DNA of 64,000 nucleotides, from NCBI RefSeq assembly GCF_003334405.1, contig NZ_QOWM01000003.1. One strand, written 5' to 3'. The DNA comes from Escherichia coli. Lineage in GTDB: Bacteria; Pseudomonadota; Gammaproteobacteria; Enterobacterales; Enterobacteriaceae. The notes beneath the pieces are model-generated. The model did no database searches and was not told the origin of the DNA. It saw only the letters and a program-made list of their open reading frames with translations. The position numbers were made by a program, and so were the translations under genes. Shown in pieces: positions 4,318-61,584 of the stretch. The stretch's first letter is position 1. Every line of letters starts with the position of its first letter.

Positions 4318-5466
4318 GTGTCTGACGAGAGCGACGACAAAACAGAAGCCCCCACACCTCACCGACTAGAAAAAGCGCGGGAAGAGGGGCAAATCCCGCG
4401 TTCCCGTGAACTGACCTCACTGCTGATTTTGCTGGTGGGCGTTAGTGTTATCTGGTTTGGCGGTGTGTCGCTGGCCCGTCGATTGTCGGGCATGCTCTCC
4501 GCTGGGCTGCATTTTGATCACAGTATTATCAATGACCCGAATCTGATCCTCGGGCAGATTATTCTGCTGATCAGAGAAGCCATGCTGGCGCTGCTGCCGC
4601 TGATTAGCGGCGTGGTGCTGGTGGCGCTCATTTCTCCGGTCATGCTGGGAGGGCTGGTATTTAGCGGCAAATCCTTGCAGCCGAAGTGTTCCAAACTCAA
4701 CCCGCTACCGGGCATTAAACGGATGTTCTCGGCTCAGACTGGCGCGGAGTTGCTTAAAGCAATTTTGAAAACCATCCTGGTTGGCAGCGTGACGGGGTTT
4801 TTTCTCTGGCATCACTGGCCGCAGATGATGCGCTTGATGGCCGAGTCTCCGATTACCGCCATGGGTAATGCGATGGATTTGGTAGGGCTATGCGCACTGC
4901 TGGTGGTGCTTGGTGTCATTCCAATGGTGGGATTTGACGTCTTTTTCCAAATATTCAGCCACCTGAAAAAGCTGCGTATGTCACGGCAGGATATTCGTGA
5001 TGAGTTCAAACAAAGCGAAGGTGACCCTCATGTTAAAGGGCGGATCCGTCAGATGCAGCGAGCTGCTGCACGGCGTCGGATGATGGCCGATGTGCCGAAA
5101 GCGGATGTCATTGTCAATAACCCGACCCACTATTCGGTAGCGTTGCAGTATGACGAAAACAAAATGAGCGCACCGAAAGTGGTCGCTAAAGGTGCAGGGC
5201 TGGTCGCGCTGCGCATTCGTGAAATTGGCGCTGAAAATAACGTCCCGACGCTTGAAGCGCCGCCGCTGGCGCGAGCGCTGTATCGACATGCGGAGATTGG
5301 TCAACAAATCCCGGGTCAACTGTACGCCGCGGTGGCGGAAGTGCTGGCCTGGGTCTGGCAACTGAAACGCTGGCGTCTGGCTGGTGGACAGCGCCCTGTA
5401 CAACCTACTCATCTTCCGGTGCCGGAAGCCCTGGATTTTATTAACGAGAAACCGACCCATGAGTAA
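4318..5466 (+). CDS. flhB: Flagellar biosynthesis protein FlhB (382 aa), apparent GTG start
   Basis: 382-aa ORF MSDESDDKTEAPTPHRLEKAREEGQIPRSRELTS with type III export-apparatus switch sequence; GTG at 4318. Confidence 0.95.
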   Translation: MSDESDDKTEAPTPHRLEKAREEGQIPRSRELTSLLILLVGVSVIWFGGVSLARRLSGMLSAGLHFDHSIINDPNLILGQIILLIREAMLALLPLISGVVLVALISPVMLGGLVFSGKSLQPKCSKLNPLPGIKRMFSAQTGAELLKAILKTILVGSVTGFFLWHHWPQMMRLMAESPITAMGNAMDLVGLCALLVVLGVIPMVGFDVFFQIFSHLKKLRMSRQDIRDEFKQSEGDPHVKGRIRQMQRAAARRRMMADVPKADVIVNNPTHYSVALQYDENKMSAPKVVAKGAGLVALRIREIGAENNVPTLEAPPLARALYRHAEIGQQIPGQLYAAVAEVLAWVWQLKRWRLAGGQRPVQPTHLPVPEALDFINEKPTHE

Positions 5467-11233: not shown

Positions 11234-12068
<835 letters not shown>

Positions 12069-12376: not shown

Positions 12377-13477
12377 ATGCGAGGGAAAAAACGCATTGGG
12401 TTATTGTTTTTGCTGATAGCGGTTGTGGTTGGTGGCGGCGGGTTATTGCTGGCGCAAAAAGCCTTACATAAAACGTCGGATACAGCATTTTGCCTTTCCT
12501 GCCACTCGATGAGTAAACCTTTTGAGGAATATCAGGGAACTGTCCACTTTTCGAACCAGAAAGGGATACGTGCGGAATGTGCCGATTGCCATATTCCAAA
12601 GTCAGGGATGGATTATTTATTTGCTAAATTAAAGGCATCTAAAGATATTTATCATGAATTTGTTAGCGGCAAAATAGACAGTGACGATAAGTTCGAAGCT
12701 CATCGCCAGGAAATGGCCGAAACAGTATGGAAAGAATTAAAAGCCACTGACTCTGCAACGTGCCGTAGTTGCCATTCTTTTGATGCCATGGATATTGCCT
12801 CGCAAAGTGAATCTGCGCAGAAAATGCATAACAAAGCACAAAAGGACAGCGAAACCTGTATCGATTGTCATAAAGGCATTGCCCATTTTCCGCCAGAAAT
12901 AAAAATGGATGACAACGCGGCGCATGAGCTGGAAAGTCAGGCCGCTACTTCAGTTACTAATGGCGCACATATTTATCCTTTCAAAACTTCTCACATAGGC
13001 GAGCTGGCTACCGTGAATCCTGGAACCGATCTCACCGTCGTTGATGCCAGTGGCAAACAGCCGATCGTTCTGTTGCAGGGTTATCAAATGCAGGGCAGTG
13101 AAAACACGCTCTACCTGGCGGCAGGTCAACGGCTGGCGCTAGCCACATTAAGTGAAGAAGGTATCAAGGCGCTCACTGTAAACGGGGAATGGCAGGCTGA
13201 CGAATACGGCAATCAATGGCGTCAGGCGTCTTTACAGGGTGCGCTTACCGATCCCGCATTAGCGGACCGTAAACCGCTATGGCAATACGCTGAAAAACTT
13301 GACGATACCTATTGCGCTGGTTGTCATGCCCCTATTGCCGCCGACCATTACACCGTCAATGCGTGGCCGTCCATTGCCAAAGGAATGGGGGCACGAACCA
13401 GCATGAGCGAAAACGAACTGGACATTTTAACGCGGTATTTCCAGTACAACGCCAAAGATATTACCGAGAAACAGTGA
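12377..13477 (+). CDS. torY: Pentahaem c-type cytochrome TorY (NapC/NirT family, 366 aa)
   Basis: 366-aa ORF with N-terminal TM helix and multiple CxxCH haem-binding motifs (CLSCH, CADCH, CRSCH, CIDCH, CAGCH). Confidence 0.93.
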
Positions 13478-13501: not shown

Positions 13502-15931
13502 ATGACATTAACAAGACGTGAATTTATTAAACACAGCGGTATTGCCGCTGGAGCGCTGGTGGTGACATCGGCAGCACCGCTCCCCGCATGGGCAGAAGAG
13601 AAGGGCGGTAAAATCCTCACCGCGGGACGTTGGGGAGCGATGAACGTAGAAGTGAAGGACGGCAAGATTGTTTCTTCAACAGGCGCGCTGGCGAAAACCA
13701 TACCGAATTCCTTACAGTCTACGGCGGCGGATCAGGTACACACCACGGCGCGTATTCAGCATCCGATGGTGAGAAAAAGCTATCTCGATAATCCACTGCA
13801 ACCGGCGAAAGGTCGTGGCGAAGATACCTATGTACAGGTGAGCTGGGAACAGGCATTAAAACTGATTCATGAGCAACATGATCGTATTCGTAAAGCTAAC
13901 GGACCATCGGCCATTTTTGCCGGATCTTACGGCTGGCGCTCTTCTGGCGTGTTGCATAAAGCGCAAACCTTACTGCAACGTTATATGAACCTGGCGGGCG
14001 GTTATTCCGGGCATAGCGGCGATTATTCAACCGGGGCAGCACAGGTGATCATGCCGCATGTGGTCGGTTCTGTAGAGGTGTATGAACAGCAGACCTCCTG
14101 GCCGCTGATTCTGGAAAACAGCCAGGTTGTGGTGCTGTGGGGAATGAACCCGCTGAATACCTTAAAAATTGCCTGGAGCAGTACCGATGAGCAAGGGCTG
14201 GAATACTTCCATCAGCTGAAAAAATCTGGCAAACCAGTGATTGCCATTGATCCTATCCGCTCCGAAACCATCGAATTCTTTGACGATAATGCCACCTAGA
14301 TCGCGCCGAATATGGGCACCGACGTGGCACTGATGTTAGGGATTGCGCATACCCTGATGACACAAGGCAAACACGATAAAGTGTTCCTTGAAAAATACAC
14401 TACCGGGTATCCGCAGTTTGAAGAGTATCTGATAGGTAAGAGCGATAATACGCCGAAGAGCGCGGTCTGGGCGGCGGAAATTACTGGCGTACCGGAAGCG
14501 CAGATAGTCAAACTCGCTGAACTGATGGCGGCGAATCGCACAATGCTGATGGCAGGCTGGGGAATTCAGCGCCAGCAATATGGTGAACAGAAACACTGGA
14601 TGCTGGTGACGCTGGCGGCGATGTTAGGGCAGATTGGTACACCGGGCGGCGGTTTTGGTTTCTCTTATCATTACTCCAACGGTGGCAACCCGACGCGTGT
14701 TGGCGGCGTGCTGCCGGAAATGTCTGCGGCGATTGCCGGACATGCCAGCGAGGCCGCTGATGATGGCGGAATGACGGCGATTCCTGTTGCCCGTATCGTC
14801 GATGCGCTGGAAAATCCTGGCGGCAAATATCAGCATAACGGTAAAGAACAAACGTATCCGAATATCAAAATGATCTGGTGGGCGGGTGGCGGTAACTTTA
14901 CCCATCACCAGGATACTAATCGTCTGATTAAAGCATGGCAGAAACCGGAGATGATCGTCGTTTCTGAATGCTACTGGACCGCAGCAGCCAAACACGCAGA
15001 TATCGTATTACCGATCACCACATCGTTTGAGCGCAATGACTTGACGATGACCGGTGATTACAGCAACCAGCATATTGTGCCGATGAAGCAGGCTGTTGCT
15101 CCGCAATTTGAAGCGCGTAACGATTTTGACGTGTTTGCCGATCTTGCGGAATTACTCAAACCTGGCGGAAAAGAGATCTATACCGAAGGTAAAGATGAAA
15201 TGGCGTGGCTGAAATTTTTCTATGATGCCGCTCAGAAAGGTGCCCGTGCGCAACGCGTCACTATGCCAATGTTTAATGCCTTCTGGCAGCAAAATAAACT
15301 GATCGAAATGCGCCGCAGCGAGAAGAACGAACAGTACGTTCGTTATGGTGATTTCCGCGCCGATCCGGTGAAAAATGCGCTGGGTACGCCAAGCGGCAAA
15401 ATTGAAATCTATTCAAAAACGTTGGAAAAATTTGGCTATAAGGATTGCCCGGCACACCCAACCTGACTGGCTCCTGATGAATGGAAAGGTACCGCCGACG
15501 AGAAGCAGTTACAGCTTCTGACCGCACATCCGGCACACCGTTTACACAGTCAGCTTAACTATGCGGAACTGCGTAAAAAATATGCGATCGCCGATCGTGA
15601 ACCAATCACTATTCACACCGAAGATGCTGCACGCTTTGGTATTGCGAATGGCGATCTGGTGCGTGTCTGGAACAAACGTGGTCAGATTTTGACAGGCGCG
15701 GTGGTGACTGACGGGATCAAAAAAGGCGTGGTATGCGTGCATGAAGGTGCATGGCCAGATCTGGAAAATGGCTTGTGTAAAAACGGCAGTGCGAACGTGT
15801 TAACGGCGGATATCCCCAGCTCGCAGCTGGCAAATGCCTGTGCCGGTAACTCAGCGTTGGTGTATATCGAAAAATATACGGGCAATGCACCGAAGTTAAC
15901 GGCGTTTGATCAGCCAGCTGTTCAGGCGTAA
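13502..15931 (+). pseudogene. torZ: TMAO/N-oxide reductase TorZ (BisZ), full 809-codon frame interrupted by two in-frame stops (TAG 14297..14299, TGA 15464..15466)
   Basis: ORFs 13484..14299, 14312..15466 and 15659..15931 are all in the same frame and together give exactly 810 codons from ATG 13502 ([21 protein letters not shown], Tat signal) to the stop at 15931; translation across both stops is continuous molybdopterin-oxidoreductase sequence. Confidence 0.8.
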
Positions 15932-15983: not shown

Positions 15984-16082
15984 CCTGATGCGCTATGCTT
16001 ATCAGGCCTACATAGTCCCTGCAATATATTGAATTAGCAAGGTTTTGTAGGCCGGATAAGGCGTTCACGCCGCATCCGGCAG
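15984..16082. repeat. REP elements (two copies) between torZ and cmoB
   Basis: gcctgatgcgctatgcttatcaggcctaca and gtaggccggataaggcgttcacgccgcatccggcag. Confidence 0.7.
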
Positions 16083-16095
16083 TAATACCAGACCT

Positions 16096-18243
<2,148 letters not shown>

Positions 18244-18295: not shown

Positions 18296-19114
18296 TCAGA
18301 AAAGAGAAGATTGCTGTGGAATAGCCGGAACTGCTCCGATCTCTGGAAGCGTTTTACGTAAGTCTTCCCACAGGGTATGTACCAGTTCCGGTGCCTGGGC
18401 AATGTCTGGCGTATGTAAAAAAAGATAAGGCGTAGTGGTCTGATGCCACTGCGCTAATTTTTGTAACCAGACCTGAAATAATTCCCGGTTTTGCGTCATA
18501 TCATCACTACCGATAAAACGGATCAGCGGATTTGTCGCCGTCAGTACAGCATGTACCGGAACTTTAGGTTTTTTTCGTTGAGCGTCGCGAATAGCTTCAC
18601 TGTGTGGACGTGCTGCATGAACCGGGCGGCTGTCTAAAATCACCCGATTAACGCCGCGCTGATGTAAACCGCGATTAAGCGTTTGTTCCTCTTCTCCTTT
18701 GGCGAAAAACTGTGGATGGCGGACTTCCACGCCATAATTAAATTCGCCAGGAAGAGAATCGAGAAAATGCCAAAGCGCAGGCAGCTCCCGTGGGCCGAAT
18801 GTGGCAGGCAGTTGCAGCCAGTATTGCCCAATGCGCGGAGCCAACGGTGACATGCGGGTCAAAAATTCAGTCACTAAATCATCGCAATGCCGTAATGCTG
18901 CCTGATGCGAAATGGTCGCCGGAAACTTAAAACAGAAGCGGAAGTCATCTGTGGTCTGCTCACGCCAGCGCAGGACAACCTCGGGTTTCGGCAGGGCGTA
19001 AAGCGTGGTGTTGCCCTCCACGCAGTTAAAGTGGCGGGCATACTCTTCAAGGCTGGTGATCCCCAACCGCACCCATTTAGGATGCGACCATTGCGGTAGA
19101 CCGATGTAAATCAT
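18296..19114 (-). CDS. yecE: DUF72-family protein YecE (272 aa)
   Basis: 272-aa [32 protein letters not shown]. Confidence 0.88.
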
Positions 19115-22357: not shown

Positions 22358-23098
22358 ATGGCAGGTCATAGTAAATGGGCCAACACCAGACATCGTAAAG
22401 CTGCGCAGGATGCTAAGCGCGGTAAAATCTTCACTAAAATCATTCGTGAGCTGGTAACCGCGGCTAAGCTGGGCGGTGGCGATCCGGACGCTAACCCGCG
22501 TCTGCGTGCGGCGGTGGATAAAGCACTGTCTAACAATATGACCCGTGACACACTGAACCGCGCAATTGCACGTGGTGTGGGCGGTGATGATGATGCAAAC
22601 ATGGAAACCATCATCTACGAAGGTTACGGTCCTGGCGGCACGGCAATCATGATTGAATGTCTGTCTGACAACCGCAACCGTACCGTTGCTGAAGTGCGTC
22701 ATGCATTTAGCAAATGTGGCGGTAACCTCGGTACTGATGGTTCCGTTGCCTATCTGTTCAGCAAAAAAGGCGTGATCTCCTTCGAGAAAGGCGATGAAGA
22801 CACCATCATGGAAGCAGCACTGGAAGCAGGTGCTGAAGACGTTGTGACCTATGATGACGGCGCGATTGATGTCTACACTGCATGGGAAGAAATGGGTAAA
22901 GTGCGCGACGCTCTGGAAGCGGCAGGTCTGAAAGCAGACAGCGCGGAAGTTTCCATGATCCCGTCTACCAAAGCTGATATGGATGCAGAAACCGCACCGA
23001 AACTGATGCGTCTGATCGATATGCTGGAAGATTGCGACGACGTGCAGGAAGTTTACCATAACGGTGAAATCTCTGATGAGGTCGCAGCGACTCTCTGA
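22358..23098 (+). CDS. yebC: YebC/PmpR-family transcriptional regulator (246 aa)
   Basis: 246-aa [34 protein letters not shown]. Confidence 0.93.
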
Positions 23099-35904: not shown

Positions 35905-37716
35905 ATGAATCCACAATTGTTACGCGTAACAAATCGAATCATTGAACGTTCGCGCGAGACTCGCTCTGCTTATCTCGCCCGGATAGAACAAGCGAAAACT
36001 TCGACCGTTCATCGTTCGCAGTTGGCATGCGGTAACCTGGCACACGGTTTCGCTGCCTGCCAGCCAGAAGACAAAGCCTCTTTGAAAAGCATGTTGCGTA
36101 ACAATATCGCCATCATCACCTCCTATAACGACATGCTCTCCGCGCACCAGCCTTATGAACACTATCCAGAAATCATTCGTAAAGCCCTGCATGAAGCGAA
36201 TGCGGTTGGTCAGGTTGCGGGCGGTGTTCCGGCGATGTGTGATGGTGTCACCCAGGGGCAGGATGGAATGGAATTGTCGCTGCTAAGCCGCGAAGTGATA
36301 GCGATGTCTGCGGCGGTGGGGCTGTCCCATAACATGTTTGATGGTGCTCTGTTCCTCGGTGTGTGCGACAAGATTGTCCCGGGTCTGACGATGGCAGCCC
36401 TGTCGTTTGGTCATTTGCCTGCGGTGTTTGTGCCGTCTGGACCGATGGCAAGCGGTTTGCCAAATAAAGAAAAAGTGCGTATTCGCCAGCTTTATGCCGA
36501 AGGTAAAGTGGACCGCATGGCCTTACTGGAGTCAGAAGCCGCGTCTTACCATGCGCCGGGAACATGTACTTTCTACGGTACTGCCAACACCAACCAGATG
36601 GTGGTGGAGTTTATGGGGATGCAGTTGCCAGGCTCTTCTTTTGTTCATCCGGATTCTCCGCTGCGCGATGCTTTGACCGCCGCAGCTGCGCGTCAGGTTA
36701 CACGCATGACCGGTAATGGTAATGAATGGATGCCGATCGGTAAGATGATCGATGAGAAAGTGGTGGTGAACGGTATCGTTGCACTGCTGGCGACCGGTGG
36801 TTCCACTAACCACACCATGCACCTGGTGGCGATGGCGCGCGCGGCCGGTATTCAGATTAACTGGGATGACTTCTCTGACCTTTCTGATGTTGTACCGCTG
36901 ATGGCACGTCTCTACCCGAACGGTCCGGCCGATATTAACCACTTCCAGGCGGCAGGTGGCGTACCGGTTCTGGTGCGTGAACTGCTCAAAGCAGGCCTGC
37001 TGCATGAAGATGTCAATACGGTGGCAGGTTTTGGTCTGTCTCGTTATACCCTTGAACCATGGCTGAATAATGGTGAACTGGACTGGCGGGAAGGGGCGGA
37101 AAAATCACTCGACAGCAATGTGATCGCTTCCTTCGAACAACCTTTCTCTCATCATGGTGGGACAAAAGTGTTAAGCGGTAACCTGGGCCGTGCGGTTATG
37201 AAAACCTCTGCCGTGCCGGTTGAGAACCAGGTGATTGAAGCGCCAGCGGTTGTTTTTGAAAGCCAGCATGACGTTATGCCGGCCTTTGAAGCGGGTTTGC
37301 TGGACCGCGATTGTGTCGTTGTTGTCCGTCATCAGGGGCCAAAAGCGAACGGAATGCCAGAATTACATAAACTCATGCCGCCACTTGGTGTATTATTGGA
37401 CCGGTGTTTCAAAATTGCGTTAGTTACCGATGGACGACTCTCCGGCGCTTCAGGTAAAGTGCCGTCAGCTATCCACGTAACACCAGAAGCCTACGATGGC
37501 GGGCTGCTGGCAAAAGTGCGCGACGGGGACATCATTCGTGTGAATGGACAGACAGGCGAACTGACGCTGCTGGTAGACGAAGCGGAACTGGCTGCTCGCG
37601 AACCGCACATTCCTGACCTGAGCGCGTCACGCGTGGGAACAGGACGTGAATTATTCAGCGCCTTGCGTGAAAAACTGTCCGGTGCCGAACAGGGCGCAAC
37701 CTGTATCACTTTTTAA
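35905..37716 (+). CDS. edd: Phosphogluconate dehydratase Edd (603 aa)
   Basis: 603-aa [34 protein letters not shown]; IlvD/Edd family. Confidence 0.97.
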
Positions 37717-45069: not shown

Positions 45070-45170
45070 AATGACTTCCTTTTCAAAAGGACTGCAAATT
45101 ATGAGTGCGGTTTAGAAAATACTCATAATTTAGCAGGCGTTATGTAAGAAAGTGTAACTCTGTATAAGTT

Positions 45171-50365: not shown

Positions 50366-52999
50366 TTATTTGGGAAGCGCAGTTCCCCATTCACGCCACT
50401 CTTTCGGTTCACTTTCCTGCAACAGGAAGTGTTTGCCTTCCTGGGCTTTCGGTGCCAGTGGCGTACCCGGAGGCGTGGCGAAGGCGATGCCGCCACGGAT
50501 AAACTGGTTAAAGGTGCCGGTTTTCACTACGCCGCCCGTCAGACCAAAGTCCAGACTGTAACCCGATGCCAACCAGAAGACGGAATTGTTACGCACCAGG
50601 TGTTGATAGCGTTTACTGATGCGCATCGCAATCATCACGCGATCTGACAATGTCCCCAGCGTCATTCCTGTAACCGTACCGACTTCCAGACCACGGAACA
50701 GCACAGGCGTACCGATGCCTAACGAACCGGCTTCCGGCGCTTCAACAATAATGCTTAAGCCATCCAGGTAACGCGAATCAGTAATGGTGGCCTCTTGTAA
50801 TTCAAAGTCGCGGCGAGGATTGCCCCGGCCTGGTTCGACGTTGATATACGGCTGGAGGATAGTATCAAGATGCTCAACGCCAGCTGCCGAAATTTGCGGT
50901 GTGACCACTGAGAAGCGCGTACCACCGCGAGCAAAGGTCTGGACATATTCCGGGTAAAGTACCGCCTTTGCCTGTACTTCATTGCGTGCGGTAATCAGAT
51001 CCAGCGTCTGGATTTGCCCGATATCAATACCGAGATAGCGAATTGGCATCCCGACCGCCAGTTTTCCGGCATCGAAAGCGTGAAGCGTAATCTGCCCGCC
51101 AACCGCACGGGCCGCTGTTTCGGAAGCATACAGAATACGCTTATCGCCTTTACGCTGACTGGCGCTGGCACCGCTGAGGTTGTCGAAGCTAATGGCTCCC
51201 TTTAATGCTCTGGAGAGCGGGGATGCCTGTACGGTCAGACCACTACCATTCAGCTGAACTTTCGCCCCGCCTTCTGCCCAGAACACGCTATTGCTGGTCA
51301 GAAGGTTGCGATACTCCGGCTTAATATGCAGATCGATATCAAACGCGTTAGCTCGCGGACGCACGGTAATCACTTCACCAACTTCAAATTTACGGTACAG
51401 CACTACCGATCCTGCCTGCACATCCGGCAGCGTCTCTGCACTCAAACTCACGGTTGTGGTGGGTAAATCGCTAAGGCTGTTCTCCAGCGCTTTTTCCAAA
51501 TTGGCATACAGTGGATAGCTGGCTTTCATCTCACCTTTATCGCCCGGCAGAATACGTATCCCGCCATTGATCCATTCTGAGGCGCTGGCACCGAGAAACT
51601 CAACGCCATCCAGCCCCACCTTCACATCGACACGGCTGTTGACGACAAATTTGCTATCGCCTTTTACCAGTTCGCGATGCTGAGGCTCGATGGCGACGGT
51701 AAAGGTGACGCCTTTGCTGGTGAGTTTACGATCGATAACCTGGCCTACCTGCACGCCGTGAAGAATGAGCGGCTGACCCGCATCAATACCGTAACTTTCC
51801 GGCGCGGTCAGGGTCAGCGTCAGAACATCAGGTTCATGCAGCAGTGCTTTTTCGCCTGGCACAACAACGAACTCTTTGCGTGGCTCGCCATCGCCGGGCA
51901 CCAGCTCGAAGGTTTTGCCGGTCAGCAGGGCGCTGAGATTAGCATCGCTAAGGGATAATTTCGGGTTGCGTAATTCGATGCGGGTATTTTCACGAAGCAG
52001 GGTAACGACGCTGGGATCAACGGTCATTTCCCCTGTGACTTTACCACCAGGATTTAAATCCAGTTTAGTCAGCTGTCCGACTTCCAGCCCCTGATACATT
52101 AACGGCGTCGAGTCGGCGGTTAATCCGGCCCCACTCGGCAGTTCCAGTTTTATTATTACGCCACGCTGGCTGTGGGCCAGATCTTCATACAGACCAAAGG
52201 TATCTTCCGCCTCGGCAGGTTTCGACTCTTCTGGTGAATCGAAGGCAATCGCACCGTTAACCAGTGCCGCCAGGCTTTCCAGTTTCACCTTCGCGCCACT
52301 GATACTGACGTTGGCATCAACGCCGGAAACGTTCCAGAAACGGCTACCTTTTTTCACCAGATCGGTAAAACGCCGCTCGATCAGGACATCAATCACCACG
52401 CCTTGCTTGTTGGGATTGATGGCATAGTCGTAGACTTTTCCCACCGGGATCTTGCGGAAATAGACCAATGAACCGCTGTTCAGCGAACCGAGATCGGGGG
52501 CTTGCAGGTGGATCATCAGATCGCCATTGTCCAGCCGATATTTCGGTTGGGTATCGAGTGCGACAAAGTGATCCTGCTCTTTACCTTTACCCGGCATCAT
52601 GCCGATATAGTTCCCACCGACGAGGGCGTCCAGCCCGGAGACACCTGCCAACGATGCTTTTGGCGTCACCAGCCAGAACTGAGTCTCTTCGCGCAGCGCA
52701 TCTTTCATATCGGACTTGATGCTGACCTTGACTTCAATCTTACGAAGATCGTCGCTGAGGCTGATATCCTGCACTGTTCCGACTTCAACGCCCTGATAAC
52801 GAACAGGCGTACGGCCTGGAACAATACCATCCGCCGACATAAAGTCGATGGTGACGGTATTACCCCGGTCCTGATAACTGTCCCAAATCAGCCAACTGGC
52901 AATCATTAGCGCGATGAACGGCAGCAGCCAGAAAGGTGAGATACGGCGTTTATTTTTAATCTGCGCTTCAGTCGTCGAAGCGGGCGTTTCCTGACTCAT
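50366..52999 (-). CDS. letB: Lipophilic envelope-spanning tunnel protein LetB (YebT), multi-MCE-domain protein (877 aa)
   Basis: ORF 50366..53041; start placed at ATG 52999 ([38 protein letters not shown]); N-terminal TM helix then repeated MCE domains. Confidence 0.92.
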
Positions 53000-61344: not shown

Positions 61345-61584
61345 TTAACCATTATCGACCACGATATTGCTTTTGCGTAACAGCGGGCAATCTGTTATCC
61401 CCAAAAAACCACTTTTAGTGTGCAAGTATTGTACCGTGCTGGTGCCTCTGGCAGTCAGATAGGTACATTGCAAACCTAATCCTGCGGCATTCTCTTTGCT
61501 TCCAATCAAAACGCCATATCCGCTGAGTAATAATCCTATCCATACCAGTGCTATCAGCATAACTGTGCGAATGATGAATCGCAT
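61345..61584 (-). CDS. yobH: Small membrane/exported protein YobH (79 aa)
   Basis: 79-aa ORF MRFIIRTVMLIALVWIGLLLSGYGVLIGS. Confidence 0.8.
   Translation of the reverse strand: MRFIIRTVMLIALVWIGLLLSGYGVLIGSKENAAGLGLQCTYLTARGTSTVQYLHTKSGFLGITDCPLLRKSNIVVDNG

Follow-up and report, generated by a model that had tools for sequence, protein, structure and literature searches.

Probable stepwise decay of torZ, a gene for a minor S-/N-oxide reductase, in an Escherichia coli clone

Introduction

Escherichia coli encodes a set of seven related S-/N-oxide reductases that overlap in their induction and are apparently redundant (PMC12096835). The gene considered here, torZ (also bisZ; b1872 in strain K-12), encodes the catalytic subunit of the S-/N-oxide reductase TorYZ, for which Gon et al. 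(2000; summarized in PMC5122715) found that the chromosomal torYZ operon alone does not permit growth by trimethylamine N-oxide (TMAO) respiration unless it is overexpressed; the physiological role of TorYZ, according to the same citation, "is still unknown". We analyzed torZ in a 64,000-nucleotide stretch of one E. coli genome (contig NZ_QOWM01000003.1 of assembly GCF_003334405.1; hereafter the window), where an earlier reading of the letters, which we call the original prediction, had noted two in-frame stop codons and had offered relaxed selection, a mutagenized or mutator background, and sequencing error as possible explanations. At a probability of roughly 0.9, we read this copy of torZ as a true pseudogene that decayed in steps, first through an amber mutation carried by a whole lineage, and then through a missense change (T311I) and an opal mutation specific to one clone.

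The closest described gene is torZ of E. coli K-12, which occupies the same locus, has the same 810 codons, and belongs to the same protein family (TIGR00509). The K-12 gene is intact, and the window's copy differs from it at 4 of 2430 nucleotides, three of them responsible for W266*, T311I and W655* and the fourth at 15315. Annotated torZ pseudogenes in the complete genomes of strains WP5-S17-ESBL-10 (NZ_AP022105.1) and LAU-OXA (NZ_CP045277.1) have the identical amber at codon 266 but keep Thr311 and Trp655, which places the window's clone one nonsense and one missense step further along. Natural pseudogene alleles of torZ or torYZ are also found in other E. coli and in Shigella, where different lesions likewise leave the torZ frame split into shorter open reading frames (ORFs). 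The decay described here is nothing new in kind but ordinary gene decay: RefSeq already annotates its primary lesion, and the split ORFs left by the secondary one can be found in a GenBank draft and in Logan assemblies.

Results and Discussion

Two nonsense codons in an otherwise recognizable torZ

The window is a piece of E. coli chromosome extending from tap/cheR through rlmA, and translation of its plus strand from 13502 to 15931 gives a torZ frame of 810 codons in which, ahead of the terminal stop, codon 266 is TAG and codon 655 is TGA, in the same contexts as originally quoted. Because K-12 MG1655 has G at both 14298 and 15466, each stop is a single G-to-A transition from TGG (Trp); alignment with K-12 bears out the proposal of two point nonsense changes without a frameshift. 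The gene and the three changes that alter its protein are as follows.

13502..15931, plus strand: torZ (bisZ) pseudogene whose 810 codons include two in-frame stops; 99.9% identity to annotated torZ
14297..14299, plus strand: amber stop at codon 266 (TGG to TAG, G to A at 14298) in the context FFDDNAT*IAPNMG; the primary inactivating mutation
14432..14434, plus strand: T311I in torZ, codon 311 ACA to ATA (C to T at 14433); a rare missense change
15464..15466, plus strand: opal stop at codon 655 (TGG to TGA, G to A at 15466); secondary and clone-specific

The identity of the gene as TorZ/BisZ of the torYZ operon is supported by family score, sequence identity and operon context. Intact K-12 TorZ (809 amino acids, WP_000176781.1) scores 1267.8 bits against TIGR00509 (bisC_fam), for which the NCBIfam cut-off is 1017.55 bits, and the conceptual translation from the window differs from this orthologue at three residue positions, the two stops and T311I. 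By sequence the window's gene belongs to the TIGR00509 family, as judged via the K-12 orthologue and the 99.9% nucleotide identity of the window's gene to annotated torZ. At the N-terminal end, the twin-arginine translocation (Tat) signal model TIGR01409 matches residues 3-31 of K-12 TorZ, and K-12 and the window agree in every one of the first 265 residues. Searched against the 5426 complete RefSeq E. coli genomes, the 2430-nt torZ stretch found annotated torZ in every one, with a best identity of 99.9%; the match covers at least 80% of the gene in 5308 of them, while 118 genomes have no match of that extent. The gene order is cutC, torY, torZ, cmoB, with cmoB on the opposite strand from torY and torZ, and torZ starts at 13502 directly 3′ of the pentahaem cytochrome gene torY, which ends at 13477.

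In the window the three domains PF18364, PF00384 and PF01568 do not share one unbroken frame but are spread over three ORF fragments. Given the two in-frame stops and the split domains, torZ here is a pseudogene of its family and not a functional member. The residual ORFs, as given in the ORF list, are:

13484/13502-14299, plus strand: N-terminal ORF, 265 amino acids, with PF18364 and PF00384
14312..15466, plus strand: middle ORF between both stops, 384 amino acids, with only part of PF00384
15659..15931, plus strand: C-terminal ORF, 90 amino acids, with the molybdopterin dinucleotide-binding domain PF01568 cut off from the rest of the protein

Stop codons do not always end a protein, and full-length TorZ might in principle still be made through a suppressor tRNA, through selenocysteine at the UGA, or by programmed readthrough. 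The related molybdoenzymes FdhF, FdnG and FdoG use UGA-encoded selenocysteine, and amber suppressors exist in laboratory strains; in supE44/glnV44 laboratory strains the amber, but not the opal, could be read through. For the window's allele, however, we regard readthrough or recoding as extremely improbable. Both positions are TGG (Trp) in K-12 and in all other intact alleles examined, and a separate mechanism would be needed for each of the two kinds of stop codon. An Rfam scan gave no match to a selenocysteine insertion sequence (SECIS) or any other RNA family inside torZ, the 60 nucleotides 3′ of each stop fold no better than shuffled sequences (z = -0.52 and +1.12), and a tRNA scan of the window found no tRNA genes. 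Compared with selenocysteine genes of the fdhF, fdnG and fdoG type, torZ shows no structured downstream RNA (z = -0.52) and no conserved UGA, this codon occurring in 0 of the 5426 complete genomes and being TGG in both K-12 and WP5-S17-ESBL-10. These results agree with the earlier view that neither stop resembles a selenocysteine codon.

An amber inherited through a widespread lineage

The two stops are not equivalent, one being an old lineage allele and the other specific to a clone. A 61-mer centered on the amber has exact matches in 45 of the 5426 complete E. coli genomes (0.8%). With a background-independent 58-mer, made up only of positions invariant across seven aligned divergent torZ backgrounds, the count was likewise 45 of 5426, about 600 genomes lying beyond this probe's reach. 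The 45 carriers come from human, chicken, swine, crow, opossum and frog hosts and have chromosomes of 4.6-5.4 Mb. In exact-protein look-ups against a public collection of 15 billion proteins, the two fragments that result from the amber (265 and 539 amino acids) were each found on at least 1000 public contigs, and single-residue variants of both fragments are also on record (P0023 and P0015), which points to more decay in the amber background. For the two amber genomes that we opened, WP5-S17-ESBL-10 and LAU-OXA, the RefSeq annotation (Prokaryotic Genome Annotation Pipeline, PGAP) flags torZ as a pseudogene with an "internal stop". Position 14298 is G and codon 266 is TGG in K-12 MG1655 and in the lineage of strain EC2. 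We conclude that the amber arose once, in a K-12-like (phylogroup-A-like) background, and is now present in a widespread lineage.

An opal specific to one clone

By comparison, the opal is far more restricted. Position 15466 is G in K-12 MG1655, codon 655 is TGG in both K-12 and WP5-S17-ESBL-10, and a 61-mer centered on the opal has no exact match among the 5426 complete E. coli genomes. The exact 384-amino-acid ORF between both stops, which carries Ile311, is on record on five contigs. We fetched three of these five, which derive from three different samples: the NCBI assembly GCA_024592625.1 showed no mismatches and one single-base gap to the window over 21.2 kb compared, and the Logan assemblies of SRR3989531 (11.8 kb compared) and ERR1948962 (6.6 kb compared) were 100% identical to it. 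The opal is a real, clone-specific allele.

These contigs also bear on the suggestion that the gene is really intact and that an error of sequencing or assembly produced one stop or both. Single-base G-to-A errors do occur in assemblies, and an opal found in none of the complete RefSeq genomes could be taken for one. Yet the identical double-stop allele recurs in separate assemblies and samples, with the 384-amino-acid fragment on five contigs and the three fetched ones identical to the window across torZ, and the amber occurs in 45 complete genomes as well as on 1000 contigs or more; an error is for these reasons hardly credible.

The original prediction had described two independent hits in a single gene. 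The presence of two stops stands, but the coincidence was overstated because the opal fell in a torZ that was already non-functional, the amber having been fixed in the lineage beforehand (at least 45 complete genomes). A survey of other genomes for the same alleles, which had been proposed as a check, recovered the amber (45 of 5426) but not the opal among complete genomes, the latter being on record on the five contigs.

Few changes elsewhere in the window

Another possibility is that torZ simply collected two of many G:C-to-A:T hits in a mutator or chemically mutagenized strain. We placed the annotation of the closest complete genome on the window's coordinates and translated its 65 complete coding sequences from the window; internal stops were found in torZ alone and the other 64 were intact, as had been stated from the letters. 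That closest genome, WP5-S17-ESBL-10, is colinear with the window over 64 kb and differs from it by 8 single-nucleotide polymorphisms (SNPs) and 0 indels. K-12 MG1655 is also colinear and differs at 11 positions in 64 kb. When the 8 SNPs were polarized against LAU-OXA and K-12, 4 of them proved specific to the window's lineage, rare or private. Two are the T311I and opal changes in torZ, and the others are:

22537, C to T: yebC N60N, synonymous
45089, T to G: intergenic, in the yobB-holE spacer

Among complete genomes, T at 14433 occurs only in EC2, together with an intact torZ, and G at 45089 occurs in 0 of 5426. The intergenic G at 45089 and the opal at 15466 are possible clone-specific markers. 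The T at 22537 was found among complete genomes only in five porcine enterotoxigenic E. coli strains, none of which is among the 45 amber carriers. Three further differences from WP5-S17-ESBL-10 are non-synonymous (edd at 36650, yebT at 51360 and yobH at 61409), and at each of them the window has the K-12 state; the variants at 36650 and 61409 are present in WP5-S17-ESBL-10 only, and the one at 51360 is common to WP5-S17-ESBL-10 and LAU-OXA.

Both protein-altering changes among the four rare or private SNPs (T311I and W655*) sit in the already dead torZ. By our own arithmetic, the binomial probability of at least two of four SNPs falling inside the 3.8% of the window that is torZ is about 0.008, a value based on very small numbers. 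Three of the four are G:C-to-A:T transitions, as a mutator or mutagen might produce, but among spontaneous substitutions in wild-type E. coli this class is also the commonest. With four rare or private SNPs and not one indel over 64 kb, the changes are far too few for a mutator background, all other coding sequences are undamaged, and the amber is older than the clone, so that a mutagenized or mutator strain is very improbable.

A conflict between the amber and T311I

Ile311 (T at 14433) accompanies the amber in the window's clone and occurs without it in EC2 and its relatives, where TorZ is intact; the intact Ile311 protein was found on 32 contigs and in 71 index blocks. All four combinations of the alleles at 14298 and 14433 exist, represented by the window, EC2, K-12 and WP5-S17-ESBL-10. 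This four-gamete conflict implies either that the C-to-T change at 14433 happened twice or that a recombination breakpoint lies within the 135 bp between the two sites. An intermediate haplotype with the amber and Ile311 but without the opal was not found in the protein collection.

We also considered that the window's clone might descend from the intact-TorZ Ile311 lineage and have acquired the amber a second time. Upstream markers at 4688, 11381 and 11636 are all T in EC2 and in three draft contigs encoding the intact Ile311 protein, whereas the window differs from these and is like WP5-S17-ESBL-10, which disfavors such a descent. An inherited amber combined with a recurrent or imported T at 14433 is the simpler reading. 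A more exotic scheme would make codon 266 a reversible toggle, in which deamination of 5-methylcytosine creates the amber and Vsr restores CTAGG to CCAGG, the amber having reverted in EC2; very-short-patch repair activity of Vsr is mentioned in PMC2715241. We consider this scheme a long shot; if it were true, the conflict between 14298 and 14433 would reflect recurrent amber mutation or reversion and not recombination.

Sequence context of the two stops

The sequence around the amber suggests how it might have arisen. CC stands directly before each of the two mutated TGG codons, which thus lie in the Dcm site CCTGG, that of the opal occupying 15462-15466; this context is shared by 4 of the 21 TGG codons of torZ. 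The ancestral site at the amber is:

14295..14299, plus strand: ancestral Dcm site CCTGG, in which the mutated G at 14298 pairs with the inner C of minus-strand CCAGG, the Dcm target

Among the 84 single-transition routes to a stop in torZ, six are at Dcm 5-methylcytosine positions, and the amber is one of these six. The rule that 5-methylcytosines are mutational hotspots, with lacI ambers at Dcm sites, goes back to Coulondre, Miller, Farabaugh and Gilbert (1978), as cited in PMC12606429. Like the lacI amber hotspots, the torZ amber is a G:C-to-A:T change that gives TAG (CCTGG to CCTAG) at the inner cytosine of CC(A/T)GG, the one that Dcm methylates. Unlike them, it is a natural chromosomal polymorphism for which recurrence was not detected, and its companion, the opal, is at the outer position of its site. 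Deamination of a predicted 5-methylcytosine, converting CCAGG to CTAGG on the minus strand, is a plausible origin of the amber.

Consequences of the lesions and selection on TorZ

In our reading, decay proceeded in two steps. In the first, TGG changed to TAG at codon 266 once and spread with the lineage; in the second, a small clone within the amber lineage gained T311I (14433) and the TGG-to-TGA change at codon 655. That the amber came before the opal follows from their distributions. The opal was probably neutral, because a stop 3′ of an earlier stop has no phenotype and cannot be selected against. Translation would end after residue 265, inside PF00384 and well before PF01568, which binds the molybdopterin guanine dinucleotide (MGD). 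Judging from the sequence, this allele should be unable to yield an active molybdenum-bisMGD enzyme. TorY would be left as an orphan cytochrome, and a polar effect on neighboring genes is not expected because torZ is last in its operon and cmoB runs in the opposite direction.

Relaxed selection on a redundant minor reductase is supported as the best of the three explanations originally offered. Loss of torZ is likely to be tolerated because E. coli has redundant reductases and because torYZ alone is insufficient for TMAO respiration. Inactivation elsewhere fits the same picture. Many other truncated TorZ fragments are found on large contigs in the protein collection, and at the DNA level we verified two of the underlying lesions: a CAG-to-TAG change at codon 197, whose fragment is listed in 117 index blocks, and the loss of 1 bp at codon 264, listed in 143. 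These are independent events, since the lesions differ and the backgrounds are 2-3% divergent from that of the window and from K-12, and such independent inactivations are what relaxed selection on a redundant enzyme would be expected to leave. In the lineage with the codon-264 deletion, torY is sometimes split (117 + 229 amino acids) or interrupted by an IS91-family element/transposase. The deletion lies 5 bases upstream of the amber's Dcm site, which reads CCAGG in that background.

The same observations might instead suggest that loss of TorZ is adaptive and has been selected in some niche, given at least three independent lesions, each of which has become common enough to appear on dozens, hundreds or over 1000 contigs, and the destruction of torY as well in one lineage. 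However, each allele is a small minority, the amber reaching 0.8% of complete genomes; a full-length match persists in most genomes (5308 of 5426 at 80% coverage or more); the hosts of the carriers are very diverse and share no niche; and recurrent loss is equally expected under relaxed selection. We therefore consider adaptive loss unlikely.

Several points weigh against stepwise decay by relaxed selection as we have described it, or against parts of it. The neutrality of losing torZ in the first place is a presumption of ours, and torZ is induced by hypochlorous acid (HOCl), copper and paraquat (PMC12096835), so there may be niches in which TorZ is of importance. Four SNPs are the whole basis for the enrichment of private changes in torZ. 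The T at 14433 may have been recombined in and not be a new mutation, since the EC2 lineage with intact torZ carries it too. As to mechanism, Dcm deamination does not explain the opal, which occupies the unmethylated outer position in its own CCTGG. A Dcm hotspot would further lead one to expect recurrence of the amber; when independent origins were sought with the 58-mer across the seven backgrounds, the set of 45 genomes was unchanged, within the probe's reach as given above.

For annotation, torZ in this genome should be treated as a pseudogene, none of its three ORF fragments should be called as a gene of its own, and the strain should be assumed to be without TorZ activity. The locus offers a small, clean case of stepwise decay in a redundant respiratory or repair enzyme, with a lineage-wide nonsense mutation followed by clone-specific hits.

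Neighboring features

The partner gene of torZ is preserved in the window, in agreement with the original prediction:

12377..13477, plus strand: torY, intact, 366 amino acids, for the pentahaem c-type cytochrome that partners TorZ; the colinear WP5-S17-ESBL-10 has torY at these coordinates too

Its translation contains no internal stop, and the protein sequence is the same as in strains with an intact torZ. TorY matches the TorC and NapC-NirT families of NCBIfam below their equivalog cut-offs, as expected for the paralogue TorY.

At the 3′ end of yecE, window position 19030 is an empty prophage site. In EC2 and related drafts, yecE is occupied by a lambdoid prophage with integrase, excisionase, terminase, capsid and tail genes (19030-50000 in the EC2 locus).

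Two regions flanking the torYZ operon matched small RNA families in Rfam, and these were the only matches near torZ. In the torZ-cmoB spacer (16004-16123), where the models are of the REP type, ES036/CssrF scored above and naRNA4 (CssrE) below the gathering score. At the other side, the 3′ part of the small RNA MicL was matched at the cutC end and in the cutC-torY spacer (12000-12068, plus strand), the match being truncated at 12000 simply because the scan started there. Inside this MicL match, at about window position 12037-12038, GCA_024592625.1 has a 1-bp deletion (GG to G), which may be an assembly error or a real variant of the MicL terminator.

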